This document shows, one piece after another, positions 8,206 through 36,491 of a stretch of DNA of 64,000 bases. The position numbers were made by a program, and so were the translations under genes. Numbering within the stretch: position 1 is the first letter of the stretch; every line of letters starts with the position of its first letter. Origin of the DNA: a virus; IMG/VR virus record IMGVR_UViG_3300043409_000868, positions 5,007 through 69,006 of that record, one strand, 5' to 3'. Under the pieces are notes generated by a model. The model saw only the letters and a list, made by a program, of their open reading frames with translations. It ran no database searches and was not told the origin of the DNA.

Positions 8206-8220
8206 GGAAGCATTAAATTT

Positions 8221-11200: not shown

Positions 11201-11907
11201 AAGCCAATGAAATGGGAATATCTGAACTGCAACTTGAAAAAGCAGCAGAACTTGCCTCATCAATTGCTGATAATGATTGGCTTGGACTTCATCTTGTACA
11301 AGATGAGACACAAGATGAAGCTAATAAGCGAGCGCAAACACATATAGCTATTAAAGATAAATTTGAACACATATCTAATATTGATATTAGAACTAACGGA
11401 CATAAAGGATTAAGGGGTGTTATTGACTCAAGAGTATCTACAAAATCACTTGAACAAGCACTTACAGAATTAGATAAAATTCCTGAAGACGAACGTCACC
11501 AGCTTGATGTTCGATTTGTTGTACTTGGTTTAGCTGGAAAAGAGGTTACTATTGGTTTAGAAGTGGAAGGATATTCTCTTGAACTAATTCAAACCGAATT
11601 AGCAAAAAGAAAGGCTGCTGCGGCTGCTCCTACGGCTCCTGAGGCTGCTCCTGCAGCTCCTGAGGCTGCTCCTGCAGCTCCTGAGGCTGCTGCGGCTCTT
11701 AAGGCTGCTCCTGCAGCTCCTGAGGCTGCTACGGCTCCTAAGGCTGCTCCTGCAGCTCCTGAGGCTGCTGATAAATCTGTAGTAGAAATATCAAAAGATT
11801 TAGTTACCGCTTTTGATAAAGATTTAGATAGTGTAACAGATGTAGAACTAACACCAGAAGAAGCAGCCGATTTACTTGGTCGAGTTTGCTATAGAAAGGG
11901 TAAATAA
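8221..11907 (+). CDS. Large internal virion protein (1228 aa) with Ala/Pro/Glu repeats
   Basis: Gly-rich hydrophobic segments, AAPEAAP repeats, located in the internal-protein block. Confidence 0.55.
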   Translation: MSTFQQFNIDNSPYKSNREQLTLDKISSLVNKSQNSITTKPVSFNLPGLHLTDEEVKKENDTFLEFLKETEEQRKYIPGSELEDMGIKAKSSYLDDKEKYIERQMGSNPSATSKLLDSWKINREDSPLLSVALLSDSVEFFQPKSAANSFSSVYNMNFRAASLWGKLFDKEAAGPQFTEALGRNAQANVIAAIRARGGIKGELWANAVAKSTYLRNMLTDTAETDQKLESWIRGSPSLINLKGSVPFSAYAGDTVLDILADSEKPESWDPKRAIEELQIAEPGLHNLLFNEMQLKPEDVENAANTPLQFKYFIADAIDQYAFGVTINEYQKQAGGLEYFFGAQALPLVVNSFNSNDQLAEIGVTAALTFFTGGTYGAIGGTALLTKRLAKSSSLIRKALKTANAFERFESISARVAQVNRYLWKAQKILPSNITETILHSMPATRGIFMEAKAGTSLFKKTVQKSTALFIGEAAQGIVESGVQQYEAMSNGFQEHFSASAIVQNAVEEGIGGLVLGGPIRLIGKVGERVSTTNMGKYVNRQINKGKVGLLGSLPELKPSVARDIDLATRVIMGIPDGVSFEDFKGALSTQARLNILMDKIDNLGLGDLLSVSSEKANRNENPFIAEAISIMSGGDKKQEFRVRVDMAQRLSALMDHTTNEETGVSTLSRDDVEAVFYLAAMDSIDPSSRSSSSQTNRLLETLLESDQAKKGKTIVTQHSGGEFTHTSNFYQVTDQDLIDLGNKIQAQTQGLVTKLGADSVSEISDIFGKSIGQEQIDLTNDVLDEAEAALGTNNRGVGVSFLGLPLLGMFRSKLSPKKVDTSTGTPPPEADIDAEDEIKSDAADAADADREEAAAAREEAVAAREEAAAAPEAAPAAPKTNAEKAADDLKKLGDIGVGAAKQFKNDTAKRLSKVLDGSMTFDEFLIDAGIKPNGQSGQDARKVYDLAKLKGLTSIDGDTYTALLEEANQAAAAPKVATAAPTLSVKVSDKIKEKANEMGISELQLEKAAELASSIADNDWLGLHLVQDETQDEANKRAQTHIAIKDKFEHISNIDIRTNGHKGLRGVIDSRVSTKSLEQALTELDKIPEDERHQLDVRFVVLGLAGKEVTIGLEVEGYSLELIQTELAKRKAAAAAPTAPEAAPAAPEAAPAAPEAAAALKAAPAAPEAATAPKAAPAAPEAADKSVVEISKDLVTAFDKDLDSVTDVELTPEEAADLLGRVCYRKGK
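10740..10860 (+). repeat. Coding tandem repeats (REEAAAA / APEAAP)
   Basis: 21-nt units of CGCGAAGAAGCTG(C/T)TGCGGCT. Confidence 0.85.
11613..11770 (+). repeat. Coding tandem repeat (AAPEAAP)n
   Basis: About seven 21-nt units of GCTCCTGAGGCTGCTCCTGCA. Confidence 0.9.
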
Positions 11908-11910
11908 GTT

Positions 11911-20900: not shown

Positions 20901-23900
20901 TATTGGTGAAACATTTAATAATACTGAGAATCAATATCAACAACAAACTGGTGCTCGTAGTATTCGAGAAAACAGAGCTTATTCTCAACAATGGATTGAC
21001 AGAGTTTCTTATGAAGTTGGTCAATTAAGAATTGAAACTACAGATGATGAGTTTAAAACTTTATTAAAATATGCACAAGAAGTTGCAACAGGAATGGGTC
21101 CAGTAGATCCACCAGGTATCTCAGCTGAGAAAATAGATCAAGCTAAAAAAGTAGGTAAAACCACTTTAAAAAATTCTAGACAACTTAGATTCTTTATTTA
21201 CGGAAAACTTGCAAAACTTTTTGAAGAAATTCCAGTTCAATTAGATAAATCATTATTTGGATCTAGGCAAATTAGTTCAGATCCCAATAAACAATTAGGG
21301 TTTGAAAAAAATAGACAAGATCTAATAGATGCAACTGCTAAACAAATTATAGAAAATGTAGAAACAGGTTCAATAAACGGTGCTTTGTTTTATGCAAGTG
21401 GTTTAGGACCTAAAATTAATAGATATTATGGTTATGATGATAAAACAGATTCAATTGATCCAGAATTTATTACGGAAATGAAACGAGTTCAAAATTCAAA
21501 TCCAGCTACGTTTAGGATGATTTCAGAAATTGCTGTAAGACAACTAGCTAATAGAGATAATTTAACTGAGGCTGAAGCATATAGAAAATTAAATCAATCA
21601 ATAAGTGATGGTTCTTTTTTAATTAATGGTTCTCCAACAATGCATAAAATTTGGCATGAATCTGCTTTAAAATTCTATAGTTTAATTAGTACCTATAAAC
21701 ATATTAGTCATGTAAATGATGGTATCAATAAAATAGCTAAATCTAACACCTTTAGTACTATATCGTTGAAGTATCTTGGAGAATGGGCAGATGAAATAAA
21801 CATAACTATAAATTCAAATGATGAAATAAGAACAGCTGGTCCTTTATTTGTACCTAATGGAAATCAATTCCTTCCAGATGGTGTTTCTAGTGTTACTAAA
21901 AAATCTACAATGTTATTAACAGGACAGAAACAAACTAAAATAGCAGATATCATGGCTGGTTTATTTTGGTCTGAAATGGGAGAACAACCAGATTACCTTA
22001 GGACAAATGAAATTATTACTGGTGCGCATATGAGACAAAACGAAGATATCAGTAAATTCTTACAGAATAGACTAGATAGTGTACTTGCTGATGTAGAACG
22101 TTCCAAGGGTTTTAGAGCTGCTTCTCGTATTGCTATTCAAGATATTACTGGAATAACTGGTTATGATATATACGATCTTATTTCTTTATTTAAACAAATA
22201 AGTGATAACTTTGAACCAAAAGAAAGAACAGAACTTTTAGATTCTCTAAAGGTAATTGAGCAAAAACTTCAGATTGAGCAAGGAATGAGTGCTAGGGGAT
22301 TAAACGATGAGGACGATCTTTACACTAATTTCTTCCTTAAGTGGGGACCTGATGTTACTAGATTAGCCTATGGTTCTAACTTGAATACGGCATCTTTAGT
22401 TATGGAAGGTGCTCTTGGTGCGTTAATTACAACTCGTTATGGAGGTAATCCAGTAACATTCTTTACAGATTTATTTGGTAGTGTCTTTGGAAACTTACCT
22501 AAAGCACTCTTTGGAGGAAGTACATACAACCCAAGAGGAGTAGCTGTAAATATGATGCGTGGTTTAGAACACTCTACAAGAAACGCTAGAGAAGTTGCAA
22601 CTCAACAAACAAACTATGTAGCTGATGGTGCGTCTAGATGGGAAAGATATAAGGCAATGATGTCAAGAGTTAACAATTCTATATTTAATGGAATTGCTGA
22701 AGGAATGACAAATCAAGCGCAAAACATTATAATTGATCACCTTAATAATGGAAATTTGTTTAAGATCAGGGATATGTTAGGCAAAGAGACGTTAAATAAT
22801 ATGGATGAATTAAAGGCAGCTTTAAATAAATACAATATTATTGGTATTCTACCCCATATGGTATTTGAATTAAAACAAGCTGGTATCTTTGAACCAAAAA
22901 TTTTAGAAGCTTATCAGTATATGTTAAATAACGTAAAGAGTAAGAAAATAAATAATGGTACTTTAGATTTTATTGCTGCAAACGAATGGAATGAAACCCA
23001 AAAATGGAACATACTACTCACTCATAAATTAGGGTTTGATAGAAATACAGCTTATCGTGCTGTAGCTAGTATGTATGAAGCTACAAAAAACTTTAGAAAT
23101 ATTGTATTAGTTGAGAATAATCCTTGGGATAGTAATACACATAGTGGTGGATTACGATTCTTAATGTCATTTTATAGACAATACCCTAATTTATTCTTTT
23201 CTCAAAAAGTAATGAGATTGGCTAATAAGGTAGACACAGGTACGTTTGCTGCTATGCTTATTAGCACTACAATCTTAGATTTACTATATAATGCTCTTTT
23301 ATTAGTTGCTCTTGGTGCTATACCCCTAGCAGCTCTGTATCCATTCTCAGATGAGTTTTTATTTAAGAAGAATCCATTAGCTGCTACTAGATTAATTCTT
23401 GGAAGAAATCCAATTTTTGGTCTTACTGGTAACTTAATTTTTGGAGCTTTGACTACTGGCTATCAGAATTATTTATCTATTAACAATGCTTATGCTAGGA
23501 AAAATAGATTTCAAGCACTAAAAAAATCAATTAAAACAGGGATTGATCAAACTGATTTAAGTATTGTTCCACAGCAAGCTGCTGAAACTTTAATTAAAGA
23601 TCCTATAACTATGATTATTCTTGGTTTAATTGCTGGTGGGAATATAAATGAAAAAGAAACATATGATATGCAGAATGCTGCTATAAATACTGGATCTAGA
23701 GTACTTCCAATTTTTGGTGAAATGGTTGTTAGAATTGGAGCTACAAGGGTACTAATAGGAGAAAACCCAAATCTCAAGAAACGTAGTAAAGTATCTCCAG
23801 GTATCAAACCTAATACTAAACCTAAGGGTCCAATTCAAGGATTACAAGCACCAAAGATTTCGTCTGCTAGTACTAATCCACTAACACCACCCGATTCATT

Positions 23901-23910
23901 AATAACCTAA
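11911..23910 (+). CDS. Giant (3999 aa) putative virion-ejected protein: DEDDy 3'-5' exonuclease, single-subunit RNAP-like module, zincin motif and hydrophobic gp16-like C-terminus
   Basis: Exonuclease motifs FDLEW / GHNILGSDSD / YIQGD. Motif A-like WDDVQSGHHH, then DYY, then motif B REFFKGAVIPVFYS. HEISH...EEFLA zincin motif. Confidence 0.7.
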   Translation: MSTKSCDISDFIKNLTEQLNPDGTRKFTDDQIKGKLKVAYKKGYISRAQIIAASGKEDTLISETEFKELETLTDLLVSSNKPLFDVFSPEQAKRLLELTNKAKNSVGYGEEGRLNQSRLQEIINLASERTPETSISILTLVDESIQRAENNGDKKRAAELRDLKVRFQKMNDLSSKLKIDWNAIVKTNKQSDKLTAEYAIVRSILDVGDRETAEKRTVLSQKILAVVDEQKTIIKDTTISEEEKVKPVAKLEAEKQNLVTQLEEITSKKFAVNRKKLEKRLKTITHELRRLQDNAPNSFLNKILVTVSGMDPEFVVTSLRELKERQLKVEDDIKLVEKVIEQYPTDKEFSFPELENLIGDDISTTKSIKSYFYEIDLDADGKPRLDSSLRPMKKRKEKITFSDMKAIVDIWKTIKRNNSYDSTITNVEANMIRNALLSGDQKLVSEVDPADPLPISRTNAERITLKVGKQYDPRKLEDRVSAIKDLHVALKRLSYISSLANNSGVISSGMLVGVLGSNAQSLSHKFDSALADDSELSNPYIPEGETTNEGRRAVLRGQLTALGYSDSDINAMPEMRNEYHDDFTKILAFDLEWEKGTNNIIAISIVELLNGEPTPVNSRVIYSTAGKDKNFSKEDAEEFLQLIHRYQNEGFKVTGHNILGSDSDVQKLVSVSKNTKLGMSIALRSLDTMLLAFRNGDKTSFSRNFGPSLDNLAKAFKVGSKAGTGITGESAHGVWKSGDYSKFEEYIQGDSILAARILQEMSKNEGKDIKVMNSRKQEQTLHIHETVPIWYDTGKPEMGRNQRYTGVNVLYDIQSFNNLRENAQQTIYDNTLYDIAKVRNVMTNMVLGLMRTNNAKDIDTLFSAINASETDALENIDMVMSISRVNHEAYLPILQQVRNSNGNRFLSNAAREENGDISYTYCDNGTDYENQVIEEIFNTLSAYNRKAEKTITRFAELVGFRGIGETENLIDFTKALFSFSAQKFNNKESIKIQDFGNGIFDYVSAVQLGRGFSQIMLGHVEEGLTLSQNIKTPVEEIDRIREVAKIDGEEIAGEDSRNLVEKREYLPITRQNVSYFAPLSMYEQERAYNDFALRERFHYILNKDITDDDVREFEKWVGTNKIVEFKNNIKDRLRLHKLFREGLIKTVNDVKLFMYDLGIESFTGYDPISIILNKDLSKDEKVKLFYDGASFAKNELATYMKELDRTRLEQGRVQNYNILMIANNRDIYNRIPTLEEVKEMSLEVALDLPQMVATWVHDSHNTRPEERRHLEEKNYWEMSELSSGGPTGAALLSGIYPQIAWYMSHPEITSDPKAMEQLVYKSLQNGIAGGSRFSRSSYWDDVQSGHHHIVALQWAYFPDESHVQEGGLLQILDNIKTGNVGRSDLKDYYNETANEFAKALGELTNAAIMRGGSDSSTNPELAQIERINNALNRSNESREFFKGAVIPVFYSAGFNGVLKGLRDKQKKMPGDPISELNDEDIQFIAAKLTVTGAIGTGRLIDTILGMDTEKSREIIKLFGEGTKRLTFDMRKRWIDIMNLDKDLKNNYISEDAARAGINLRLRMIAELTLPARYETTRFEREEWIKDRVKLLTEKWNKRIENGMEIIRKSGKKGVEVGSQSERDFHVALAGNESAFKTQMSLMAINQMQNSGLKLNSSDRDILEASVRTGRYIAEGDLMYANNVVFTTVGFGSGSARAQYVGNYLTNLHGSRLSKGNRTVYNDDHSINWDETIKNSAWSLEGNPLTGKPRNEAIAEIDKLAVKHYLLQVATDYAPTMIGYNQENESRSNFFNQWKNRTKQEREYDYMGRMNDVAKLKTLYETEDPTTKRTLTDAEIELSIASNSTPINKRIGTRILAGDFASPHDETVMSMSDAKGLAAFRPRLADDAFDDRIVHGLYSIYQGTKQLNLGVGRFRSAVQKLKEDNTTPESILDMENSRATQYDPEELGVYFPEIDSSLTQEIFGQRPTFNQKLNKMRFLLDTFGMQHGLQELVKAKEYTRLYQIYKVRQAMKKFALLLGESKDSKWDMRFLHRHFIQQVFRITKAQRDASNSSRNLLNFLKSIGIDPSLFKDGFGNNLHWIDTLGILADMGIEELSTLKFGMSPVEMLTTSTTETPSILKSGSTIVMPNVIQGEDVSVIIQSIWADVRVQQKATEYADRLVSEGTLSSYEKDPTGKYILLAAVPKDIQVQIAQTIFTDDELIMDVAENLGLHVTLEFVAGENMLRLQGSKLHASSLGAYVVPRRGLGFPSANRTVLGERDVKTYLTPEAVKSILYSAKNAKFFSRLETAVQVDKYLGQTTIVDRLRQQQYGEYLDRHLEQIAEETELLEALEEGKLQKLRTERMRDELGVELNLYDAEAYFTSEDEITGLTPFKNAMSLDMRIAYERAKQYPLLQDEAETLRKLTTKVEHEKLFLQISFITFLRNNVSGKELTDPQLRMLVNEHFGSELTNSEFESLMKNANEITEIIDRINFSPFKGKNPYLAQAVKHRQMLLYDPDVLNVTSGYRSQNDIINFMEEFDIPSKDYEIAAQAVIEAYAITNRSVGNAETYLTIPSSDLVNIASDPDEFARVFPSGSHINSQLSKLVKDGVIDGETEIFYRLLIGKILKHNPNLAKFLSIECDDLSTSRSAEAVKEDDRFIIKLNTKLLKNMGRIDQTRVFAHEISHIARLAFIADNSPEWRKVESLFRSKKGRDSIPTMLLIMNNNSKYEGFDQDVKYYTENVEEFLAQWGSWILLEKVFNNPAVMQAIQSRSTAALFASNAYKSSFYRMRDEVLSITTGLAEVDEGVLSSILDITESMFGFTSSVERTIHVTNANQKLGMISSFDTPLSSREGEVDKLSSLQNKVNVSGISSLTVIEQAEYKILTNKYSVSPLKNLDIVTYKKLRSTRESRQGTSLALPHVRSSSGKFLSTLDDLKTPEKLELANTIILESIKRGGKLARNLGTVGGLAREQSEKMFGKKATEMFLVSRYLLGTWDLTQASKTHQSQNIVVASLMHIIGETFNNTENQYQQQTGARSIRENRAYSQQWIDRVSYEVGQLRIETTDDEFKTLLKYAQEVATGMGPVDPPGISAEKIDQAKKVGKTTLKNSRQLRFFIYGKLAKLFEEIPVQLDKSLFGSRQISSDPNKQLGFEKNRQDLIDATAKQIIENVETGSINGALFYASGLGPKINRYYGYDDKTDSIDPEFITEMKRVQNSNPATFRMISEIAVRQLANRDNLTEAEAYRKLNQSISDGSFLINGSPTMHKIWHESALKFYSLISTYKHISHVNDGINKIAKSNTFSTISLKYLGEWADEINITINSNDEIRTAGPLFVPNGNQFLPDGVSSVTKKSTMLLTGQKQTKIADIMAGLFWSEMGEQPDYLRTNEIITGAHMRQNEDISKFLQNRLDSVLADVERSKGFRAASRIAIQDITGITGYDIYDLISLFKQISDNFEPKERTELLDSLKVIEQKLQIEQGMSARGLNDEDDLYTNFFLKWGPDVTRLAYGSNLNTASLVMEGALGALITTRYGGNPVTFFTDLFGSVFGNLPKALFGGSTYNPRGVAVNMMRGLEHSTRNAREVATQQTNYVADGASRWERYKAMMSRVNNSIFNGIAEGMTNQAQNIIIDHLNNGNLFKIRDMLGKETLNNMDELKAALNKYNIIGILPHMVFELKQAGIFEPKILEAYQYMLNNVKSKKINNGTLDFIAANEWNETQKWNILLTHKLGFDRNTAYRAVASMYEATKNFRNIVLVENNPWDSNTHSGGLRFLMSFYRQYPNLFFSQKVMRLANKVDTGTFAAMLISTTILDLLYNALLLVALGAIPLAALYPFSDEFLFKKNPLAATRLILGRNPIFGLTGNLIFGALTTGYQNYLSINNAYARKNRFQALKKSIKTGIDQTDLSIVPQQAAETLIKDPITMIILGLIAGGNINEKETYDMQNAAINTGSRVLPIFGEMVVRIGATRVLIGENPNLKKRSKVSPGIKPNTKPKGPIQGLQAPKISSASTNPLTPPDSLIT

Positions 23911-24005
23911 GTAAATCGACTTAGGGGTCAGAAATTTTCGTGGGGGTCGGTAGCTTTAGCTAAAATAGCTTTACCCCCCGTACCCCCACCAACGAAAGGT
24001 CAGGT

Positions 24006-24116
24006 ATGAAAATTTTCTTGCTGATCAATACGTTCATGGTGGCACACAAGAACTATATTGCCTTCATTGGCAGTATACTTTGTGTGTCAGCATGGATCGT
24101 AAAGATCTATGGTTGA
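24006..24116 (+). CDS. Small hydrophobic early peptide (36 aa)
   Basis: MKIFLLINTFMVAHKNYIAFIGSILCVSAWIVKIYG. GAAAGGT upstream and a hairpin downstream. Confidence 0.45.
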   Translation: MKIFLLINTFMVAHKNYIAFIGSILCVSAWIVKIYG

Positions 24117-24151
24117 CAGCCAATCCCTCATGCTTTCGTAAGAGAGCATGA

Positions 24152-24197
24152 GGATGTTAGCTGTCGCTAACAAACGTACCTATGCGTTACATAGGAT
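24152..24197 (+). repeat. 46-nt intergenic direct repeat A, copy 1 (two hairpins)
   Basis: GGATGTTAGCTGT(C/T)GCTAACAAACGTACCTATGCGTTACATAGGAT, repeated at 24361-24406. Confidence 0.9.
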
Positions 24198-24211
24198 ACA
24201 GGAGATATGCC

Positions 24212-24328
24212 ATGACTTGGCTTATCTGTATCATCGGTGGACTCCTTATTGGAGTCTTATGTAGTCTCGCCTCTATCTTCAGCCGCTGGGCTGAAGAAGC
24301 CAGGAAGGCAGGTGCATACAAGAGATAA
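24212..24328 (+). CDS. Small membrane peptide (38 aa)
   Basis: AGGAG SD. MTWLICIIGGLLIGVLCSLASIFSRWAEEARKAGAYKR. Confidence 0.6.
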   Translation: MTWLICIIGGLLIGVLCSLASIFSRWAEEARKAGAYKR

Positions 24329-24360
24329 CACTCCGCCCCTTTGCTACGGCAAGGGGGCGG

Positions 24361-24406
24361 GGATGTTAGCTGTTGCTAACAAACGTACCTATGCGTTACA
24401 TAGGAT
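24361..24406 (+). repeat. 46-nt intergenic direct repeat A, copy 2
   Basis: One mismatch to copy 1. Confidence 0.9.
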
Positions 24407-24432
24407 TTTATAGTCTGAAAGGACTAGACAGT

Positions 24433-24681
24433 ATGAGCAAGACGAAGAAGAAGCTGATGATGAATATCATCGTCTGGTGGGTTATCCTGGTAGGAGGAAC
24501 ATGCGTTCTTTCGTACTTGACCTTTGTCATTGGGAAGTACGTGATGTGTGAGGCAACTCACCCAGCGGAGTGGATGTTGGTTGGGCTGTGTGTTGGTCTT
24601 CCGATCATGGGTGTGTACTTTCTTATTTGCATTGCAGATGAGATCAAGTCAGACATGATTCGTTTCCGCTTTATGAAGTAA
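24433..24681 (+). CDS. Small 2-TM membrane protein
   Basis: AAGGA SD and two hydrophobic helices. Confidence 0.65.
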   Translation: MSKTKKKLMMNIIVWWVILVGGTCVLSYLTFVIGKYVMCEATHPAEWMLVGLCVGLPIMGVYFLICIADEIKSDMIRFRFMK

Positions 24682-24734
24682 GTAGCTAAGAGGCTACCCA
24701 AGCTCCCTAGGGAAACCTAGGGAGCGAAGGGCTG
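24682..24734 (+). repeat. 53-nt intergenic direct repeat B, copy 1 (GAAA-tetraloop hairpin)
   Basis: GTAGCTAAGAGGCTACCCAAGCTCCCTAGGGAAACCTAGGGAGCGAAGGGCTG, repeated at 24967-25019. Confidence 0.9.
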
Positions 24735-24791
24735 TATCTTAACAGCACATGTGTACCTATGCACTACATAGGATATTTCAAGGAGATCCAA

Positions 24792-24974
24792 ATGGATCAG
24801 CCTAAGAAAACCACAACAAGGTATATTGTTGTGGACAACGTGTTTGGTGTGGATCTTGTTATCCATACCAATTTGAAAGAGGCCAACATTGATGCTGGCC
24901 TTTATCCTCAAACCCATATTGTTGTAGAAGTTACAACAGAATGGGAGAACGTTAAGACAATCTCTCGTAGCTAA
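24792..24974 (+). CDS. Small hypothetical early protein
   Basis: AAGGAG SD, flanked by the two repeat B copies. Confidence 0.6.
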   Translation: MDQPKKTTTRYIVVDNVFGVDLVIHTNLKEANIDAGLYPQTHIVVEVTTEWENVKTISRS

Positions 24975-25019
24975 GAAGCTACCCAAGCTCCCTAGGGAAA
25001 CCTAGGAAGCGAAGGGCTG
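24967..25019 (+). repeat. 53-nt intergenic direct repeat B, copy 2
   Basis: Two mismatches to copy 1. Confidence 0.9.
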
Positions 25020-25104
25020 CGTCGTAGCAGCAAACCCCTAAGGCATTGGGGGTGCCCTATTGAGGGCCTACTCATAACAGTGGCATAGCCACAAGGAGAG
25101 TTCA

Positions 25105-26928
25105 ATGCCCGTTTCTCTTGCTGGTCTTCCGACCAGCGAAAAGGTTAGTAAGTTTGTCCATGACTTGCTTGTCAAGTCTGGCGAACTGTCTAACCAGCCA
25201 TCCTTTGAGATGGCGATCAAGGTGGTGTGGGAGGACATCGTTGTCCCTGCACTGGACGCGGGTGACTTGGAAGTGATCCAAGTCGGCGACGAGAAGTGGA
25301 TTCGGAATACTTCGTCTAAAATGACGAAGGACAACCGAATCTGTTTGTCTCCGAGAACAATGCGGCACAACTGGGGCAGCAGCAAGATGAATCTTGAGTT
25401 GCCTCCGCGATACGCAGAAGAGCAGGAGACTCGCGCCAGTGTTCGCCTGACGATTAATCGCCCTATGTTGGCGATCATTCAGAAGGCGGCATTGGTTCCA
25501 GAGGTCGTCAAGAAGATCGGACAAGATCCTGCCGTTAATTTGGCAACGATGTTTGTGCGCAACGCAGACAAGGGTGGACAACCATTCTTTTACGTTGCAC
25601 CCTTCTTTGACAGCGTTGGACGCGAGTATGGGGAGGGTCTTTTGAGTTACACAGGTAACCAAATGGTCCGAAATCTCATTGAGTTTTACGACTCAGTGGA
25701 TTATAACCCCATCTTCGTGAAGGAGTTCATTGAACCCCTGGTCTACGAGTCCAGCGGCGTGAAGTTTGAGAACTTCCGTGAAGTGCTGGATCGGTGGGAG
25801 GACATCCTCCTCGACAAGTGGGCGTTCAAGAATCCGTGGCACACGCTTCGTATGGCGGTCTTCTACAACGAAGTCGTTACTCAGGGGTACTCTGGTGCCC
25901 ATCTTGAGTACGACTTTCGTACCAGTGGTCCGTTGATGCTTGGGCTTCTCTCGCGCGACCGAAACATGATGGCCGACACCAATATGTTCGGTGTCGATAA
26001 CCGTGATTGCCGCAACACTGTGGCAAGCTTGGTTGTTGTTCCTGCTGCTCTCAAGCAGTGGGAAGATCGCCTCAAGTCCAAGGATGTTGCCAAGCCTTTC
26101 GTGACTCAGACCACATACGGTCAAGGTCCGAAGGGTGCGGTGGCTGGCCTCTTCTGGAAGGATGCCAAGAAGGCTCCTGGGATGTGGCTCAACGGACTGG
26201 GAATGCCGCAAGAGGCATTTTTGGATGCTGTTCTCAAGCAGCAGCCAAACCTCTTCAACCCAGACTGGATCGAAATCATCCAATCTTTGGGTTGGATGAG
26301 TGCGTATTCAGCTTTCCACGACCTGTCTTCCTCTTACTACAATTCCTTCTGGGGTGCTTACAAGCACCTCAAGGGGTATTGTTTGAAGGTAGAGAAGGCA
26401 GGAATGGCCCAGATGGCAAGCACGGGCTGCAAGCCAGAGTTCACCAACATTGCTGGGTGGCGTTATTGCCACCACAAGTGGGAAGTGGAAGCAGGGGGAA
26501 AGGTGGTTCGTTTGCGTTATAACGGACCAGGTTGCTGGAAGGACTTTCCACGGGGGTTTGAAGTGTCAATCGGCAGCATGATTGACACGGCAGACCTCTA
26601 CAGTTTGGTTGTTAGGATGACACACCAAGCCGATGCGTGGATTCGCAACGATTCTCACTTCGCTATCCGCAAGGACCAGATGCGGTACTGGGGGCGATAC
26701 GTCGGACACATGGCAGTGCATGACGCACTCATCGTGCCAGTACGGCAGGGGGTGGGTTTCCACAAGGTGGTGAGGCCAGTCCTCCACCGCTTCGTGGAGA
26801 ATTACGTCCCGAGTGTGGACAAGTTCCTGAAGGACAATGGTCAGGAGCCGCCAACGGCCCTGAACAAGTCTCAGCAGGAACTCGTTCACTGGAGCATCGC
26901 CAACAACAAGAGGTGGCTCAACCTCTAA
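25105..26928 (+). CDS. Second, minimal T7/N4-type single-subunit RNA polymerase (607 aa)
   Basis: FDSVGREY (DxxGR), motif A YDFRTSG, motif B KDVAKPFVTQTTYG, THQADA and motif C AVHDAL, all in T7 order. AAGGAG SD. Confidence 0.8.
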   Translation: MPVSLAGLPTSEKVSKFVHDLLVKSGELSNQPSFEMAIKVVWEDIVVPALDAGDLEVIQVGDEKWIRNTSSKMTKDNRICLSPRTMRHNWGSSKMNLELPPRYAEEQETRASVRLTINRPMLAIIQKAALVPEVVKKIGQDPAVNLATMFVRNADKGGQPFFYVAPFFDSVGREYGEGLLSYTGNQMVRNLIEFYDSVDYNPIFVKEFIEPLVYESSGVKFENFREVLDRWEDILLDKWAFKNPWHTLRMAVFYNEVVTQGYSGAHLEYDFRTSGPLMLGLLSRDRNMMADTNMFGVDNRDCRNTVASLVVVPAALKQWEDRLKSKDVAKPFVTQTTYGQGPKGAVAGLFWKDAKKAPGMWLNGLGMPQEAFLDAVLKQQPNLFNPDWIEIIQSLGWMSAYSAFHDLSSSYYNSFWGAYKHLKGYCLKVEKAGMAQMASTGCKPEFTNIAGWRYCHHKWEVEAGGKVVRLRYNGPGCWKDFPRGFEVSIGSMIDTADLYSLVVRMTHQADAWIRNDSHFAIRKDQMRYWGRYVGHMAVHDALIVPVRQGVGFHKVVRPVLHRFVENYVPSVDKFLKDNGQEPPTALNKSQQELVHWSIANNKRWLNL

Positions 26929-26980: not shown

Positions 26981-27067
26981 CTTGGGCATTTTGCCCACCT
27001 CGTCTACAGGAGTTCTCTGTAGAAGATACCTGTTTGTCTTAAAAACAGGCTATTAGGAGCATGTCAC

Positions 27068-27475
27068 ATGAGTGACATCAACGTTGGTTCGCGTCAGGTC
27101 ATCCGCAACTCCGAAGGCAAGGTTGTCGGGACTTTCCTCCCGTCAAAGAAACACTTCGGCAAGTTTGCGGTTACCACGTTCCTTCCGTCTGGCGAAGCGC
27201 ACACCACAATCAAGGGAGTATCTGATTGGGTCATGATCACGGAGCGCAACCCAGACTGGACATTCTCTCCGTCTTACTACACCGTTGCGTGTGGTAAGGA
27301 GGGTGATGAGGTGGTGATTGAACTGACGCACAACAGTGTTCCAGAGTGGAACACTACGTTTCGCGTGCCACACGCAATGAACTGGCAGGATTCGTTCCTG
27401 ATCTCGTTCCGCATGGGCATGATGTCTCTGGGTCGTGAGACGCACATCGGCAACTTTGTCGATCTCACGGTCTGA
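27068..27475 (+). CDS. Hypothetical early protein (135 aa)
   Basis: AGGAG SD, GC-rich codon usage like the adjacent RNAP. Confidence 0.7.
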   Translation: MSDINVGSRQVIRNSEGKVVGTFLPSKKHFGKFAVTTFLPSGEAHTTIKGVSDWVMITERNPDWTFSPSYYTVACGKEGDEVVIELTHNSVPEWNTTFRVPHAMNWQDSFLISFRMGMMSLGRETHIGNFVDLTV

Positions 27476-27638
27476 GAGACAAGTAAAACAAGTACGGAGC
27501 AACCCCCCTTGGGCAACCAAGGGGGCCTCTCCCTATTTGTTCTAGGTAATATGAGTTATTATATACTCTAGACTATTTGTAACCATAGACTATGGAGTAG
27601 TTATAGACTATAGGCATATCATTATACCCAGGTCAGTA

Positions 27639-27682
27639 CCATACCATACCCATACCATACCCATACCATACCCATACCATAC
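27639..27682. repeat. (CCATACCATAC)x4 tandem repeat
   Basis: Four exact 11-nt units in a non-coding region. Confidence 0.95.
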
Positions 27683-27820
27683 CCCTACCCAGCTTATAGA
27701 ATGCCGTAGCGGTCATCCTAGGGCCATTTCCTGCCATTCTACAAGGTATATCCAGCAGCTATCTATAAAAAATGCGTATAACTGTGGAATGCCCTGCTAA
27801 TTTCCCATATTATACTTATT

Positions 27821-27847
27821 TATCGTCCCCTTCGGGGACCGTGGTGG
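27821..27847 (+). promoter_or_regulatory. Candidate phage promoter, hairpin motif copy 1
   Basis: TATCGTCCCC-TTC-GGGGACCGTGGTGG. Confidence 0.7.
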
Positions 27848-27928
27848 AAATTGAGTAGTACTCAAGCCCAGATATAATATAGATCAGAGCGTAAACTATC
27901 TATAGATATATCTGAATTAGGAGACAAC

Positions 27929-28192
27929 ATGTCTGATCCCAATACGCCTGACATCTCCGTTGATCCCATCGCAGCTGTTTTTCCTGTTGATCCCGTTGCT
28001 ACAATGCTTCGGACTGGCCAAATTCTCATCACTCTCAAAGGTGAGTCAAATTGGCCTGGGAATTACAAGAACCTGAATGACCGTCAAATCATGAATTTGA
28101 TCAAGATGGTTCAAGAAGGTCGAGCTAACAAGCCAGAGACGGTCAAGGCTATCCTGCGGGAAGCGTTGGATCGTCAACTCATCTCGCCATGA
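27929..28192 (+). CDS. Hypothetical protein (87 aa)
   Basis: AGGAG SD, located between motif copies 1 and 2. Confidence 0.7.
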   Translation: MSDPNTPDISVDPIAAVFPVDPVATMLRTGQILITLKGESNWPGNYKNLNDRQIMNLIKMVQEGRANKPETVKAILREALDRQLISP

Positions 28193-28193
28193 G

Positions 28194-28220
28194 TATCGTC
28201 CCCTAAGGGGACCGTGGTGG
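28194..28220 (+). promoter_or_regulatory. Candidate phage promoter, hairpin motif copy 2
   Basis: TATCGTCCCC-TAA-GGGGACCGTGGTGG. Confidence 0.7.
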
Positions 28221-28250
28221 TCTATAGGGAAACCTATAGATCATCTTTCA

Positions 28251-28336
28251 GGTCTATCAAGAGCCTATACATAAATCTTGGTGCAAACATCAACTAGGTA
28301 GCCAATCTGGAGGCTAAGTAGTGCTCTTAATGATGT
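28251..28336 (+). ncRNA. Hatchet-like ribozyme candidate
   Basis: UC|U, P1 TATCAAGA/TCTTGGTG, CAA linker, P2 ACATCA/TGATGT, P3 ACTA/TAGT, P4 TAGCC/GGCTA and 3' TAGTGC..TTAA. Lacks the G-rich strand expected between P2 and P3. Confidence 0.35.
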
Positions 28337-28365
28337 AGCTTATAGTGTAGCTTACTATAAGTATT

Positions 28366-28458
28366 CACCTAAGCATGTGTTTAAACTGCTTACGCTGTCC
28401 AAGAACGGTAGTCATAAGTTTCTTGGTATTCACCTAAGCAATGTGCCTAAACTGCTTA
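28366..28458 (+). repeat. Two tandem copies of a compact pseudoknot motif (further copies at 28880-28905 and 28964-28991)
   Basis: CAC-CTAAGCA-(A)TGTG-NNTAAAC-TGCTTA. Confidence 0.75.
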
Positions 28459-28576
28459 CTTTGTTAACTACTGGCTGTGCCAGAGTTTGGTACCACAATG
28501 TCCGCCAAAAACCTATAATAGGGCGGTATAAAAATACTATACCATTACGGTACATAGGTAAATTGCGTATACCGCG

Positions 28577-28647
28577 ACTCAACTAGATGAGTATAAATAG
28601 GGTTTAAGTCTAGTGCGCCCCCTTCCATTTTACGATGGGGGGTACCC
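28577..28647 (+). ncRNA. Pistol self-cleaving ribozyme
   Basis: P1 ACTCA/TGAGT, loop ACTAGA pairing with TCTAGT, ATAAAT linker, P2 GGGT/ACCC, TTAAG, GCG, P3 CCCCC/GGGGG. GU cleavage site at 28642-28643. Confidence 0.85.
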
Positions 28648-29046
28648 AGCGAGGGTAACAATAATTGAATCATACCTCAACTCTTCTGTTGACATCCATT
28701 CAATTTTAGAAGTATTGTTATCTAGACTAAACAGCAATTGTTAAGTTTGCCGAGTCACACAATTGCTGGGATCAATAAACTCGGATCTTCCTACACAAAG
28801 GGGCACCTTTGTATAGGAGTTTACCGCAAGCAACCTAGCCCATAGGCGGTATATAAATAGTGGGACATTATACTGTGTAGACCTAAGCATGTCAAAAAAA
28901 GGCTTTGGATTTAGGGTATGATAAGACTATCCTAGCATATCACCTAAGGTATGTATAACTTTCACACCTGAATATGTGTTTAAACTATTTACAGATTACA
29001 ATACACCTAGGCGTACTAGGTATTACTTTATTGGAGATATATTTAA

Positions 29047-29298
29047 ATGACTGATTCAGGTATCCGTATTGCGCTTTGGGAAGTCAACAGTGAGAATCCC
29101 AACAGCCCTAAGTTCAATGGTATTGTTACTATTGATGGTAAGGAGCACAAGGTATCCCTTTGGGATAATTCGGCAGCTACGCACCCTAAAGCCCCAAGGC
29201 TTAAGGGAAAGACGAGCCGACCAAGTCCAAAGGTTGAAGAAGAGTCCATGATTACTGAGATTATCTGTGTCCCTATGGGCACGAATCTCCCCTTCTAA
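29047..29298 (+). CDS. Small DUF736-like putative ssDNA-binding protein
   Basis: N..SPKFNG.VTIDGKEHKVSLW pattern and C-terminal LPF. Confidence 0.5.
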   Translation: MTDSGIRIALWEVNSENPNSPKFNGIVTIDGKEHKVSLWDNSAATHPKAPRLKGKTSRPSPKVEEESMITEIICVPMGTNLPF

Positions 29299-29302
29299 TC
29301 AG

Positions 29303-29336
29303 GGGGTACTTAGGGAAACCTAAGTACCCCTTTTTT
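29303..29336 (+). terminator. Rho-independent terminator
   Basis: GGGGTACTTAGG-GAAA-CCTAAGTACCCC followed by T6. Confidence 0.9.
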
Positions 29337-29339
29337 CCG

Positions 29340-29458
29340 AATACCCTAGTATATAGCTAGGGTTTAACCTTAGGTTTATCACCTAAGAATAACCTAAGAT
29401 ACTTAGGTTATATAGTATTATTATTATAGTATTATATCACCTAAGTATTAACCTAAGA
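29340..29458. repeat. ACCTAAG short-repeat, AT-rich cluster (candidate origin)
   Basis: ACCTAAG x4 plus inverted CTTAGGT copies around TATAGTATTATTATTATAGTATTATAT. Confidence 0.55.
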
Positions 29459-29465
29459 GGGATAT

Positions 29466-29864
29466 ATGTCACACGAAATTGTTGAAGAAGTTGCTAAAAG
29501 GTTAGATGCTAAGGTTCTTATAAGATTTGAAGACAGCAATGGTTACCAAGGTGTAATCTATTATGTCTTAAGTAAGAGTAATACTTACTCTATTGTATCT
29601 GTTCACTACGGGACCTGTGCTCTTTGTGATTTTCAACTTGGTTTGATTGAAGAATACCGAGAAATGTGGCCTGATGTTAATAATGAGATTCCCCTTAGTG
29701 CTTTCGAGCCTATGATTCAATCTCTTTTTAAAGATGTTGAAGAGTTTGGATTCCATTCAGTTGAAGACCTTATCACTAAATTTGATATGATCTTTGGTGT
29801 TGGCTACAGTGAAGAACTTGTTCGTGAAGAAGTACTTAAGTATCTTCTTCGTAATTGTCTATAG
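29466..29864 (+). CDS. Hypothetical protein
   Basis: ORF with a GAGGG SD. Confidence 0.7.
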   Translation: MSHEIVEEVAKRLDAKVLIRFEDSNGYQGVIYYVLSKSNTYSIVSVHYGTCALCDFQLGLIEEYREMWPDVNNEIPLSAFEPMIQSLFKDVEEFGFHSVEDLITKFDMIFGVGYSEELVREEVLKYLLRNCL

Positions 29865-29874
29865 GAGAATAATT

Positions 29875-30240
29875 ATGGGTCTTGATACTTATGCTGTATA
29901 CTCTAGTAAACATCCTAATTATACTCAGGATGGGGATAACTCCATACCTGACACATTGTTCCCCGATAACAACCTGTGTGGTGGGATGTTTAGTGGAATG
30001 GGTGCCTCATTTCGAGGCAAACGTTACAATGACTATGTAGAATGGGCAACTGGGGTTTCCCTTTATGATCGTTTAATTGATTCAGAAGTTGTCCAAGATA
30101 TGTATATCTCACTAAAGAATGCTGACTTTAGGCAGTATCGTGGTGATAATTGGGGTATTACTAAAGAAGAAACAAAACAACTAACGGAATGGTTCCGTGT
30201 AGTTAGTGAAGAAAATGGCTCTATTGCAGGATGGTGGTAA
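29875..30240 (+). CDS. Hypothetical protein (MGLD... family)
   Basis: AGGAG SD, MGLDTY start and WW end typical of phage early proteins. Confidence 0.7.
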   Translation: MGLDTYAVYSSKHPNYTQDGDNSIPDTLFPDNNLCGGMFSGMGASFRGKRYNDYVEWATGVSLYDRLIDSEVVQDMYISLKNADFRQYRGDNWGITKEETKQLTEWFRVVSEENGSIAGWW

Positions 30241-30241
30241 C

Positions 30242-30613
30242 ATGTATACAGTTGATATGTCTATTGTTAATAAGAAGGTTCAACAGCGTGTAGAGAAGAT
30301 CCAAACTGTAGCTAACGCTAAGAAGATTCCTTTGATTGCTGCTGCTATGTGGGTAGACCAGAATGGTCCCGAGAGCACCAATAAGAAGATGTTGGCTGAG
30401 ATTGGTATGAACTTTGATGAGGTTACATTGGATAACTACAAGGATGTTCTTGTTGGTCTTGAGTGTATCAATGTCAAGGTTGTATGGCAAGAGAATCATC
30501 CTCTTACCCGTGTTGTTGAGCAACTCAATGAAGTAATTAATGAAACAATTACTGAGTGTTGGGGTGGCGAAGACATGCAAGAGTTTATTGAACTTACTCC
30601 TATCTTCGAGTGA
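30242..30613 (+). CDS. Hypothetical protein
   Basis: ORF coupled to the previous gene. Confidence 0.65.
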   Translation: MYTVDMSIVNKKVQQRVEKIQTVANAKKIPLIAAAMWVDQNGPESTNKKMLAEIGMNFDEVTLDNYKDVLVGLECINVKVVWQENHPLTRVVEQLNEVINETITECWGGEDMQEFIELTPIFE

Positions 30614-33414: not shown

Positions 33415-33446
33415 CCACGCTTGTAGCTATGCTACACTCAAAAAAT

Positions 33447-33470
33447 TATCGTCCCCTTCGGGGACCATTG
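33447..33470 (+). promoter_or_regulatory. Candidate phage promoter, hairpin motif copy 3 (directly upstream of the main RNAP)
   Basis: TATCGTCCCC-TTC-GGGGACCATTG. Confidence 0.7.
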
Positions 33471-33487
33471 TGACACAAAGGAGAACA

Positions 33488-35923
33488 ATGCTAGAATCTT
33501 GGCATAAATTAAGTGTGGAAGAAAAGTCTCGTAGAACAACAATGCAAAAGATCTACGAGGAAGAGTTGCTTGAAAATGGTGTTGAAAAATATTGGAAAGA
33601 GTATGGTAGGTCACCTGATGAAGGTAAGCCAGAACAACTGCTACTTGAATCAGCTGTAATACATCTCACTCCTTATTACCAAAAATGGATTGATGAATGT
33701 TGTAGTAATCGTAAGTCACCTGATTGGCTAGCACCTTTACTTAGTATTGGTGCAGCTAAGATGGCAGATATTACTCTTCGATCAATGATGAGATTGTTTC
33801 TAACAAGAAATACAATCCAAAGTTTTGATGATACAATGGGTATCCCAGCTAATGCTCCTGTTGCTCAACAAGTAGCAAAGCTTATCTCTGAGGATGTTGT
33901 ATCTATTGTTGCTTATCAACAAGCAAAGAAACGATTCTCTGAAGATTGGCGTAAGCAATCTAAGTTCATTAAGAACTGGACTGTTAAGCGGTGCAAAGCA
34001 TTTACATCTAAAGTTGCTAAGATCCCTAAGCTAAGGCCTAAGGAGAAAGAAGACTTTGGTCACAACATGCTTAGAGTTGCCCTCTCTAGTGATATCCTCA
34101 CTAGTAGGATTCATTGGAATGGTAAAAATAAAAAGTCATTACTAGTATCTTTCTCTCCTTGGATCTTATGTGAAATCCAAAAGAGACATGAGCTACTAGA
34201 GACAGCTTGCCTTGTTTACAGGCCAATGATCTCACCACCCATCCCACATACAACTAAAGAAGATGGTGGGTTTCTCAGCCCCTGGGTGCGTAAGAAGATG
34301 ATCAAGAGATATCATCCTGTTGGAGCAGATCCAAAGGAGTGGGACTCAAGACCATCCCCTATGGTTCTTAAAGGTCTTAATGCTTTAATGGAAACAGAGT
34401 GGTCAGTTAACACTCAAGTCTACCAAGTCATGAAGACTATGTTTGAGAATGATTATAAGGCTGCTAACATTCCTGCATACACATTCAGAGACTATGCTTT
34501 CTCTAGGGAGTATCCCATTGATGGGACCAAAGAAGAGAAAGCTAAGTGGATGCAAGAATCTAATGAAGCATGGGGCGAGTGGTATAAGGAAGAACAATCA
34601 CGATCTAGAATGATCGTTAGATTAGAGTTGGCAAGAAAGATGATTCAATGGAACTTCTTTTATATGCCATACACCCTTGACTTTAGAGGACGTACCTATT
34701 CGGTATGTGAACTTCTATCTCCTCAAGGTATTGACTTTGATCGAGGACTTGTTCACTTTGGAATGCCACGTAAACAAACTAAAGAAGGTTTGTATTGGTT
34801 GTATGTCCATGTAGCAAATCTATTTGATCAAGACAAGAAACCATTTGACCACCGTGTTAAATGGGTTAAAGATAATATGGATCTCTTCCTCCGTATTGCT
34901 GATGATCCATATGCTAATAAAGAATGGATTGATCCAAGTAAGAAGAAGAATAAATCATTTCAAAGATTGGCTGCTATCTTTGAGGTATGCAGGACAGATG
35001 GACTAACACAACTCCCTGTTCAAATGGATGGTGCAAATAATGGTGGTCAACATTGGGCTGCTATTATGCGTAATAAGAAACTTGGTATCCTAACTAATCT
35101 TATTAAAACAGAAAAGCCACAAGATCTCTATCAGTATGTAGCTGATGCTGCTACTGAGTTTATGAAAGAGAATCCAACTAATAGATGGTATCCTGCATTT
35201 CTAGAGTATTGGGATAATAGACTTCCTCGTAGTGTAACTAAGCGTTCTACTATGTGTGATGCTTATGGTCTTACATTCTATGGTATGCAGAAATATGTCA
35301 AGCAAGAGGGTCATGTAGATTGGGTAAGTAAAGAACAAAGAGGTGGAGCTGTAGTAGAACTAGCTCGCGCTATCCAAGTTGGCCTAGGTGAGACAATGCA
35401 ATCGCCTAACCTAGGCAAAGTTTGGCTACGAGAAGTAGCTACTATTCTTAACTCTTTAAACAAACCTTTTGTATGGACTACACCTAGTGGCTTTGAGGTA
35501 CATCATGTTTATAATCAAATACTTGAACGAGTCAGTTATGCTGAGTTGTTTAATCGTCAGCAACTTGTTTTCAGCACTGTTACGGAAGACCTTAATGGTA
35601 AAGCACAATATCTTGCAATTTCTCCAAACTATATCCATTCGCTAGATGCTGCTCATATGTTTATGACAATTTCTAGGATGTTAGATACAGGTATGAGTGC
35701 CTTTTCATTTGTCCATGATTCTTATGGAACATATGCACCTGACATTCCTGTCATGCATAAGCTATTGCGAGAAGAATTCATCAAGATTCATAAGGAGAAT
35801 CAACTTGAAAACCTCAAAAAAGAAATTGAAAAAAGATATGGAATCTATCTCCCCGAAGTCCCCACCCAAGAAGAAGGTTTTGACCTCCAAGAAGTCGTTG
35901 AATCAGAATACTTCTTCGCTTAA
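33488..35923 (+). CDS. T7-like single-subunit DNA-directed RNA polymerase
   Basis: DFRGR, motif A MDGANNGGQH, motif B RSVTKRSTMCDAYG, PNYIHSLDAAH, motif C VHDSY. AAGGAG SD before ATG 33488. Confidence 0.97.
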   Translation: MLESWHKLSVEEKSRRTTMQKIYEEELLENGVEKYWKEYGRSPDEGKPEQLLLESAVIHLTPYYQKWIDECCSNRKSPDWLAPLLSIGAAKMADITLRSMMRLFLTRNTIQSFDDTMGIPANAPVAQQVAKLISEDVVSIVAYQQAKKRFSEDWRKQSKFIKNWTVKRCKAFTSKVAKIPKLRPKEKEDFGHNMLRVALSSDILTSRIHWNGKNKKSLLVSFSPWILCEIQKRHELLETACLVYRPMISPPIPHTTKEDGGFLSPWVRKKMIKRYHPVGADPKEWDSRPSPMVLKGLNALMETEWSVNTQVYQVMKTMFENDYKAANIPAYTFRDYAFSREYPIDGTKEEKAKWMQESNEAWGEWYKEEQSRSRMIVRLELARKMIQWNFFYMPYTLDFRGRTYSVCELLSPQGIDFDRGLVHFGMPRKQTKEGLYWLYVHVANLFDQDKKPFDHRVKWVKDNMDLFLRIADDPYANKEWIDPSKKKNKSFQRLAAIFEVCRTDGLTQLPVQMDGANNGGQHWAAIMRNKKLGILTNLIKTEKPQDLYQYVADAATEFMKENPTNRWYPAFLEYWDNRLPRSVTKRSTMCDAYGLTFYGMQKYVKQEGHVDWVSKEQRGGAVVELARAIQVGLGETMQSPNLGKVWLREVATILNSLNKPFVWTTPSGFEVHHVYNQILERVSYAELFNRQQLVFSTVTEDLNGKAQYLAISPNYIHSLDAAHMFMTISRMLDTGMSAFSFVHDSYGTYAPDIPVMHKLLREEFIKIHKENQLENLKKEIEKRYGIYLPEVPTQEEGFDLQEVVESEYFFA

Positions 35924-36322: not shown

Positions 36323-36491
36323 CAAATCGTCCCCTACGGGGACCGCTGTAGATCATTTAAATATCTACCAACAAATGCATTTACAAGGTACTTTTAATGT
36401 ATACGAACCTATTGAACAGATTAATGGAGATCCTTTGCCACCACTAGCTGTACAATGGAAGGAAGACGCAAAGCGTAGATGGGGTAGATAA
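36306..36491 (+). CDS. Hypothetical protein
   Basis: ORF coupled to the phosphoesterase. Confidence 0.45.
   Translation: MNQTYDKSSPTGTAVDHLNIYQQMHLQGTFNVYEPIEQINGDPLPPLAVQWKEDAKRRWGR
36325..36346 (+). promoter_or_regulatory. Candidate phage promoter, hairpin motif copy 4
   Basis: AATCGTCCCC-TAC-GGGGACCGC. Confidence 0.65.

Follow-up and report, generated by a model that had tools for sequence, protein, structure and literature searches.

The DNA analysed here (the window) is a stretch of 64,000 nt, bases 5007-69006 of a 69,006-base virus record which, as its ends repeat, was assembled as a circle. Every long ORF lies on the + strand, the same strand as the pistol ribozyme at 28577-28647 that is our subject. 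Recognisable genes include a single-subunit RNA polymerase (33470-35923, phrog_414, E 3.6e-150), which in its best 15 matches is 26-28% identical to those of cultured T7-type phages, a primase/helicase, a DNA polymerase and a ribonucleotide reductase, together with virion genes for a head-tail adaptor, a tail protein and the major head protein; four tRNA genes are found at 38.6-41.3 kb. Two sequencing runs holding most of the stretch are labelled freshwater or lake, and one of them may be its origin. When 27000-30500 was compared by megablast with 50,697 phage records no match was seen, and no cultured phage is close in DNA. Three consecutive giant ORFs of 1400, 1228 and 3999 residues span 4003-23910 (+); none of the three proteins belongs to a Pfam family, PHROG likewise gives no family for the one of 3999 residues, and the second carries long Ala/Pro/Glu-rich repeats at 10.7-11.8 kb.

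The pistol sits within a ~2-kb gene-poor stretch (27476-29465) between the last large + ORFs (to 27475) and the small ORFs that precede the polymerase gene. This stretch holds two small ORFs, 27929-28192 and 29047-29298, which flank the pistol; both are on the + strand with ribosome-binding sites, and the next ORF start is ~400 nt from the pistol. A terminator-like hairpin (27520-27534) follows the last large ORF. Searching the nine neighbouring ORFs against PHROG gave no family for six and faint or unnamed families for the remaining three. By gene order, early transcription of a T7-type phage would be expected to start in the gene-poor stretch; the earlier note had called the region early, which is reasonable on this ground though not proven.

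To identify the RNA we scanned the window with cmscan against 4227 Rfam families. Five matches exceeded the gathering score: Pistol (RF02679) and four tRNAs. The pistol match occupies 28577-28647 (+), covers the whole model (1-68/68) and scores 50.0 bits against a gathering score of 34.5 bits (E 3.8e-6 for the 64-kb window). It was recovered at 50 bits in the complete 69,006-base record, where it is the only one, and the same search found no pistol in 14 control genomes. A full-length match that is alone in its record and has no counterpart in the control genomes is far beyond chance. At the level of sequence, the segment is thus confirmed as a genuine member of the known pistol class, a family reportedly described by Weinberg et al. 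in 2015. The earlier note had named it a pistol and proposed Infernal with the Rfam model as the check, and it is this search that bears the name out; covariation in relatives, described below, backs it further. The elements, all on the + strand, are as follows:

28577-28581 / 28588-28592 (+): P1, ACUCA / UGAGU, 5 bp, read from the sequence
28582-28587 / 28609-28614 (+): pseudoknot, P1 loop ACUAGA / UCUAGU, a perfect 6-bp complement
28593-28599 (+): linker AUAAAUA, read from the sequence
28600-28603 / 28644-28647 (+): P2, GGGU / ACCC, four standard pairs; brackets the active site
28604-28608 (+): UUAAG, read from the sequence
28615-28617 (+): GCG, read from the sequence
28618-28625 / 28634-28641 (+): P3, CCCCCUUC / GAUGGGGG, seven of eight pairs standard, one U.U
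28642/28643 (+): predicted scissile bond G28642/U28643, in the 2-nt junction from P3 to the 3' strand of P2

The pseudoknot of this class joins the P1 loop to the strand between P2 and P3, and its scissile bond sits in a junction of exactly two bases, usually GU. Reading the sequence placed every element named in the earlier note where it had been claimed, the GU junction at 28642/28643 included. In the covariance-model alignment, G28642 and U28643 occupy two unpaired ',,' columns (GU) of the Rfam consensus, and the linker AUAAAUA, the UUA-purine-G segment and GCG agree with upper-case consensus letters. The same unpaired bases are invariant or nearly so in an alignment of 14 pistol sequences.

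From the alignment, we provisionally take G28615 to be G40 of the pistol ribozyme, G28608 to be G33, A28607 to be residue 32 and G28617 to be G42. All four are present, and three of them are invariant in the 14 sequences; position 28607 is A or G among these sequences and likewise in the Rfam consensus. As described in PMC7027511, the 2'-OH of the junction G attacks the next phosphate, with the guanine G40 as general base, a hydrated Mg2+ on N7 of G33 as the likely acid, and ribose 32 and G42 helping to shape the active site. Going by the alignment and these roles (PMC7027511), G28615 would act as general base and G28608 would hold the catalytic Mg2+. Junction length is reported to be strictly conserved in pistols, with the cleavage site defined there, and a representative pistol makes ~10 cuts per minute under physiological conditions (PMC4604425). 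The ribozyme at 28577-28647 is probably active in self-cleavage. The transcribed RNA would fold into P1, the P1-loop pseudoknot, P2 and P3 and would cut itself between G28642 and U28643 by internal transesterification, giving an upstream fragment that ends in a 2',3'-cyclic phosphate and a downstream fragment that begins with a 5'-OH at U28643. Since only 5 nt separate the predicted cut from the ribozyme's 3' terminus, nearly the entire ribozyme would stay on the upstream fragment and the downstream product would keep UACCC alone; few ribozyme nucleotides remain on the 3' fragment of pistols, according to PMC8782182.

To follow the ribozyme in relatives, we collected 45 IMG/VR loci via the polymerase protein and searched the 44 records behind them with RF02679. 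A pistol above the cut-off was found in 14 of the 44 (38.9-65.2 bits), and among the 11 records with a completeness of 90% or more it was present in 6. The five complete records that have no pistol carry a polymerase only 27-65% identical to the query; in pistol-bearing records the identity is 72-100%, plus one at 65%. The pistol is on the polymerase strand in all 14 records, 3.5-5.9 kb upstream of the polymerase in 13 of them and 10.1 kb in one. We then aligned 14 distinct pistol sequences with MAFFT (L058, identical to L057 over the ribozyme, was omitted) and scored each helix for cells paired and for pairs with changes on both sides:

P1: 100% of cells paired, both-side changes at 2 of 5 pairs (14 sequences)
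Pseudoknot: 100% of cells paired, both-side changes at 5 of 6 pairs (14 sequences)
P3, outer six pairs: 79.8% of cells paired, both-side changes at 4 of 6 pairs (14 sequences)
P2: 56.3% of cells paired, both-side changes at 3 of 4 pairs (14 sequences)

For the structure as a whole, 87.3% of cells were paired, compared with 75.5% in shuffled controls (none of 500 reached 87.3%) and 35-52% when the partners were slid. The figures for P2 and P3 are somewhat lowered by a MAFFT register that is off by one on the 3' side of three sequences. P1 and the pseudoknot are, as far as the alignment can tell, strongly supported by covariation. P2 is canonical in the window copy, well formed there alone and without covariation support: its outermost position is a standard pair in the window copy only, and the covariance-model alignments contain P2 mismatches in most relatives and, for L056, mismatches at several places in P3. 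For L057 the model leaves P3 out, and a longer hairpin can be made out there by eye. The pistols of some relatives may therefore be weakened or degenerate-looking.

The surroundings of the ribozyme vary. The upstream context differs among relatives; by eye, a reading frame apparently ends directly before the pistol in L060 and ~60 nt before it in L050. In X21 record 9, an RNA-library contig, 28577-28646 is preserved but for three differences between flanks that are both of other sequence, which makes the ribozyme a conserved island.

We next consider the RNA on both sides of the predicted cut, for which the features are:

28523-28530 / 28568-28575 (+): upstream hairpin clamp, GCGGUAUA / UAUACCGC, from the minimum free energy fold of 28500-28830
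28643..28822 (+): expected 3' product of the cut, a structured RNA of ~180 nt, non-coding
28663-28670 / 28698-28705 (+): long-range helix, AAUUGAAU / AUUCAAUU, a perfect 8-bp complement
28790..28817 (+): terminal hairpin, 12 pairs of which 11 standard, GGCA loop, followed by AGUUUA
28823..28866 (+): pseudoknot candidate, S1 28824-28827/28846-28849 and S2 28839-28842/28861-28864

On the 5' side, the clamp is a predicted 8-bp hairpin (28523-28575) that closes 1 nt before the ribozyme; by eye, relatives also have a hairpin directly 5' of the pistol, with different sequences. The fold of 28500-28830 has a z-score of -4.38 and retains P1 and P3. On the 3' side, the 188 bases from U28643 fold with a minimum free energy of -54.1 kcal/mol (z -4.76), and none of 200 shuffles was as stable. 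No + strand ORF of at least 60 aa lies within 28643..28822. A counterpart of equal length follows the pistol in relatives, with sequences that are barely alignable across subgroups, and a MAFFT alignment of the downstream RNA across subgroups is not structure-consistent. Rfam searches returned no other significant family for 27400-29500 and 23880-25120 (E up to 5), and none but the pistols for the loci of three relatives (E up to 1). ARAGORN found no tRNA gene beside the pistol in any of 13 relatives' loci, and it rejected as a tRNA a T-arm-like stretch that follows the pistol of L051.

Six versions of the long-range helix, different in sequence, are found at much the same distance from the pistol. 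Besides that of the window, these are:

L048 and L054: AUUGAAUA / UAUUCAAU
L047, L049, L050, L052, L056 and L060: UUGAAAC / GUUUCAA
L053, L055 and L059: AUGAAAC / GUUUCAU
L064: GUGAAAC / GUUUCAC
L057 and L058: UGAACA / UGUUCA

As a general companion of pistols, a TGAA-type loop and its complement was rejected (11 of 93 pistols, 13 of 838 control windows); the pair is clade-specific, since 7 of the 11 cases belong to this clade or are of the L064 type. When nine relatives were folded together with RNAalifold, the downstream RNA had both-side changes at 9 of 31 pairs. In this consensus the bases just behind the cut pair with a distal strand, and UCUUUU stands after a terminal hairpin that shows compensatory changes. 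In the window itself the terminal hairpin is terminator-like with a poor U run and is absent from the terminator-scan list. The single-sequence fold of the window has a closing helix (28645-28650 / 28764-28769) that includes the P2 strand ACCC, and in this model the helix would draw the product away from the ribozyme once the cut is made; it is not kept in the two closest relatives, L048 and L054.

Directly 3' of the pistol-linked RNA lies the ~44-nt H-type pseudoknot candidate, which is 84-100% identical in seven relatives. S1 (CCGC/GCGG) is invariant. S2 (CCCA/UGGG) is paired in all 10 distinct sequences, compared with 30-55% for slid controls, and 3 of its 4 pairs have changed on both sides. 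The candidate is interrupted in L047 and is also found in two relatives that have no pistol (L027:4719-4772 and L029:5286-5339), and its core pattern recurs in 28 IMG/VR stretches. It has no Rfam match. The RNA adjoining the pistol and the pseudoknot motif, both outside the Rfam families, may merit a description of their own. A weaker paralogue of the candidate, repeat D4, lies just upstream of the pistol at 28500-28547.

The pistol region also occurs in RNA libraries from several studies. The data are assembled contigs from four runs with freshwater or lake-type labels, which contain relatives 90-99% alike; the contigs are blind to strand, ends and level, and DNA may be present. X21 record 9 spans the scissile bond uncut and so represents either uncleaved RNA or DNA in the library. 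X16 record 1, unbroken from 27568 into the ribozyme, and X20 record 6, from a different study, both stop at 28616 without a loose end. This position is inside the ribozyme, 26 nt before the predicted cut, and the stops hint at a nearby RNA end weakly at best; strain differences in P3 that create a branch point would account for them equally well. X20 record 7 covers 28774 to 29301, terminal hairpin included, and enters the next ORF, so the hairpin need not end the RNA. The uncovered stretches (28617-29344 in X16, 28617-28773 in X20) carry no evidential weight, and labels of runs with small shares were set aside where habitat is concerned.

Altogether, we put at about three in four the probability that 28577-28647 is a genuine, probably active pistol on the gene strand that cuts at G28642/U28643 and has processing in cis as its most likely role. 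This role is favoured because the downstream fragment is a conserved structured non-coding RNA. The ribozyme would separate the upstream leader and small-ORF transcript from the ~180-nt RNA and so fix the 5' end of the latter, which would be released as a conserved, highly structured molecule closed by the terminator-like hairpin at 28790-28817. The earlier note had suggested that the ribozyme may cut a phage non-coding transcript into modules. This fits the clamp, the ~180-nt RNA and the pseudoknot. The data demonstrate that the element belongs to the family, that it is conserved and covaries, and that it has structured neighbours; the ribozyme-bearing transcript, its self-cleavage in vivo and the making of an end are things we infer. 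The chance that the pistol defines the 5' end of the downstream RNA is, in our estimate, between one in three and one in two, with plain intercistronic processing as the main alternative. More tentatively, the pistol might be the built-in 5'-end maker of a new ~180-nt phage RNA within a ~400-nt early module locus. Such a locus could be made up of clamp, ribozyme, a domain of several helices (the covarying long-range one among them), terminal hairpin and covarying H-type pseudoknot, a layout that we offer only as a suggestion; equally speculative is its assignment to a place near the early-gene start throughout a clade of ~65-70-kb freshwater phages. If true, this would be the first defined biological job for the pistol class, and the downstream RNA could be a new functional RNA, such as a regulator, an anti-defence decoy or a catalytic RNA.

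The same arrangement might reflect ordinary intercistronic mRNA processing, in which a long rightward early transcript would be cut between 27929-28192 and 29047-29298, its two parts would get different stability or translation, and the folded RNA would be a long 5' leader. We consider this possible, if somewhat doubtful. The pistol does lie between two small + ORFs with ribosome-binding sites, one RNA-library contig reaches the ribozyme from 27568 without a break (X16 record 1) and another is continuous over 28774-29301 (X20 record 7), and a pistol-less relative has two type II hammerheads exactly between ORFs. Some pistols in other phage contigs are found 45-93 nt before a start codon that has a Shine-Dalgarno motif, and the processing of polycistronic transcripts is among the roles proposed in PMC6765202. 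Here, however, the next ORF starts ~400 nt away, and the stretch up to it is conserved as structure and not as plain spacer. Across phages, an ORF start lies at most 100 nt from 16 of 88 usable pistols and from 87 of 475 random places; these are no different, so a general link between pistols and ORF starts was rejected.

Alternatively, the ribozyme could be an insulator at the late/early boundary that cuts read-through from the virion-gene side or across the junctions of replicated copies. A ~2-kb gene-poor site between the last large ORFs and the pre-polymerase small ORFs would suit such a device, as would an upstream context that differs among relatives, with frames apparently ending before the ribozyme in L060 and L050. 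We think it unlikely, however, as the hairpin at 27520-27534 already stands after the last large ORF and the conserved partner of the ribozyme is downstream, not upstream. Finally, the element might be an inactive relic or look-alike that is conserved as a DNA site or as part of a 42-codon minus-strand frame (28545-28673). The weakened P2 or P3 of several relatives and the wealth of repeats and hairpins in the region speak for this reading, but a score 15 bits above the curated cut-off and a window copy with all four P2 pairs and the conserved bases intact make it improbable, and neither a protein frame nor a DNA site predicts that P1 and the pseudoknot are kept by compensatory changes in 14 of 14 sequences.

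Several known systems come close to this locus. Harris et al. already reported in 2015 (PMC4604425) that pistols are frequent near phage genes, prevalent in Firmicutes and environmental DNA, and in several cases encoded by phage genomes. A narrow pattern built from the core of the window copy occurs in 103 IMG/VR stretches, on contigs of 4-190 kb with at most three copies per contig. Phages thus commonly carry pistols, and as a ribozyme this copy is nothing new. It shares with the family (RF02679) the fold, the conserved bases, the cleavage junction and the phage-linked setting. It differs in its host, which instead of a Firmicute or its prophage is a freshwater phage of ~69 kb, uncultured and equipped with a T7-type RNA polymerase, and in its fixed syntenic place in a clade, coupled to conserved structured RNA outside Rfam. 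What is new here is the context: a conserved ~180-nt RNA, whose 5' end the predicted cut would set free, followed by a covarying pseudoknot. A literature search over listings and abstracts found nothing on pistols in phages with T7-type polymerases or on pistols coupled to a downstream RNA; the pistol discovery papers may already include cases from comparable phage contigs.

A 2019 review describes the functions of such ribozymes as undefined and perhaps important in phages (PMC6765202). With the roles of pistol and most small self-cleaving ribozymes given there as open (PMC6765202), this copy provides a natural setting that is well defined: its position is constant within a phage clade, with a predicted cut at the start of a conserved folded RNA. 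Relatives with hammerheads elsewhere or with no ribozyme add to its value. The context is of moderate interest because it makes the purpose of the cut testable.

By analogy, the nearest functional counterpart is the theta ribozyme at the 3' ends of phage tRNAs, as reported in PMC10879173. Theta (minimal HDV-like) ribozymes lie by phage tRNA genes and cut at a site that coincides with the end of a neighbouring structured RNA (PMC10879173). They too are small self-cleaving phage ribozymes and point to end-maturation without a host nuclease (PMC10879173). The geometry is different: theta cuts its own 5' end and makes a tRNA 3' end (PMC10879173), whereas pistol cuts near its own 3' end. Unlike theta, the pistol here would make an RNA 5' end, and ARAGORN finds no tRNA at the locus.

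Within the same phage group, L025, which has no pistol, carries two type II hammerheads (RF02276, cut-off 37 bits) at 2028-2093 and 2507-2575 (+), with scores of 50.2 and 45.5 bits. In both cases the ribozyme starts immediately behind a small ORF's stop codon, ahead of the next ORF, and the second precedes a homologue of window ORF 25105-26928 (26% identity, E 8e-18). Like the pistol, they are self-cleaving ribozymes on the gene strand in short non-coding gaps; they differ in class and in place, among the small ORFs before the 25105-26928 homologue, and in a record that is pistol-less.

RNase III processing sites in phage T7 early transcripts were reportedly described by Dunn and Studier in 1983. 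They too are places where rightward early RNA is cut site-specifically at structured inter-gene sites, in a phage that, as here, has its own single-subunit polymerase, but the cutting there needs a host protein enzyme. At our locus, in contrast, the RNA would do the cutting on its own, with a 5'-OH and a 2',3'-cyclic phosphate as the resulting ends.

As for promoters and repeats, ten sigma-70-type promoters were found in comparison with 6.2 expected, none of them convincing upstream of the ribozyme, and no motif of at least 11 bases recurs before genes as a genome-wide phage promoter would. A perfect sigma-70 consensus (TTGACA, 17 nt, TATAAT) is present at 28895..28867 on the - strand, against all genes. 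As its hexamers are not kept in most relatives, an antisense-RNA reading was dropped, and this promoter may be fortuitous. The motif TCACCTAAG has five exact copies in the window, all on the + strand within 28365-29445 (1.1 kb), and GGCGGTATAWAAATA has two; being local to the pistol region, both were ruled out as a genome-wide promoter. Three or four of the TCACCTAAG copies belong to a ~28-nt repeat, CACCTAAGCATGTGTTTAAACTGCTTAC.

A third candidate, TACCTATGCGTTACATAGGA, was ruled out in the same way since its three copies are all at 24.2-24.8 kb. It forms the core of a 46-nt two-hairpin repeat at 24152-24197, 24361-24406 and 24729-24774 (+; 0.01 expected by chance). Each repeat stands shortly before a small ORF, in a region that corresponds to the hammerhead sites of L025, and has no Rfam match at E up to 5. 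These repeats could be processing sites, promoters or something new.

A hairpin of the form ATCGTCCCC-UUCG/UAAG/UACG-GGGGACC has four copies on the + strand (27820-27846, 28193-28219, 33446-33472 and 36324-36350), which bracket the first small ORF and the RNA-polymerase-gene stretch; the third overlaps the polymerase start codon. This layout is reminiscent of how RNase III sites flank the early genes of T7. Behind the last large ORF, the gene-poor stretch also has an 11-base tandem repeat, CATACCATACC-like, with ~6 units (27624-27689, +), which may be near a physical genome end. Two other phage contigs in IMG/VR, of 39 and 131 kb (L102 and L139), carry three pistols each. Several of these are 20-40 nt before a Shine-Dalgarno motif and start codon, which suggests that pistols are used repeatedly as intercistronic cutters in the L102 and L139 phages.
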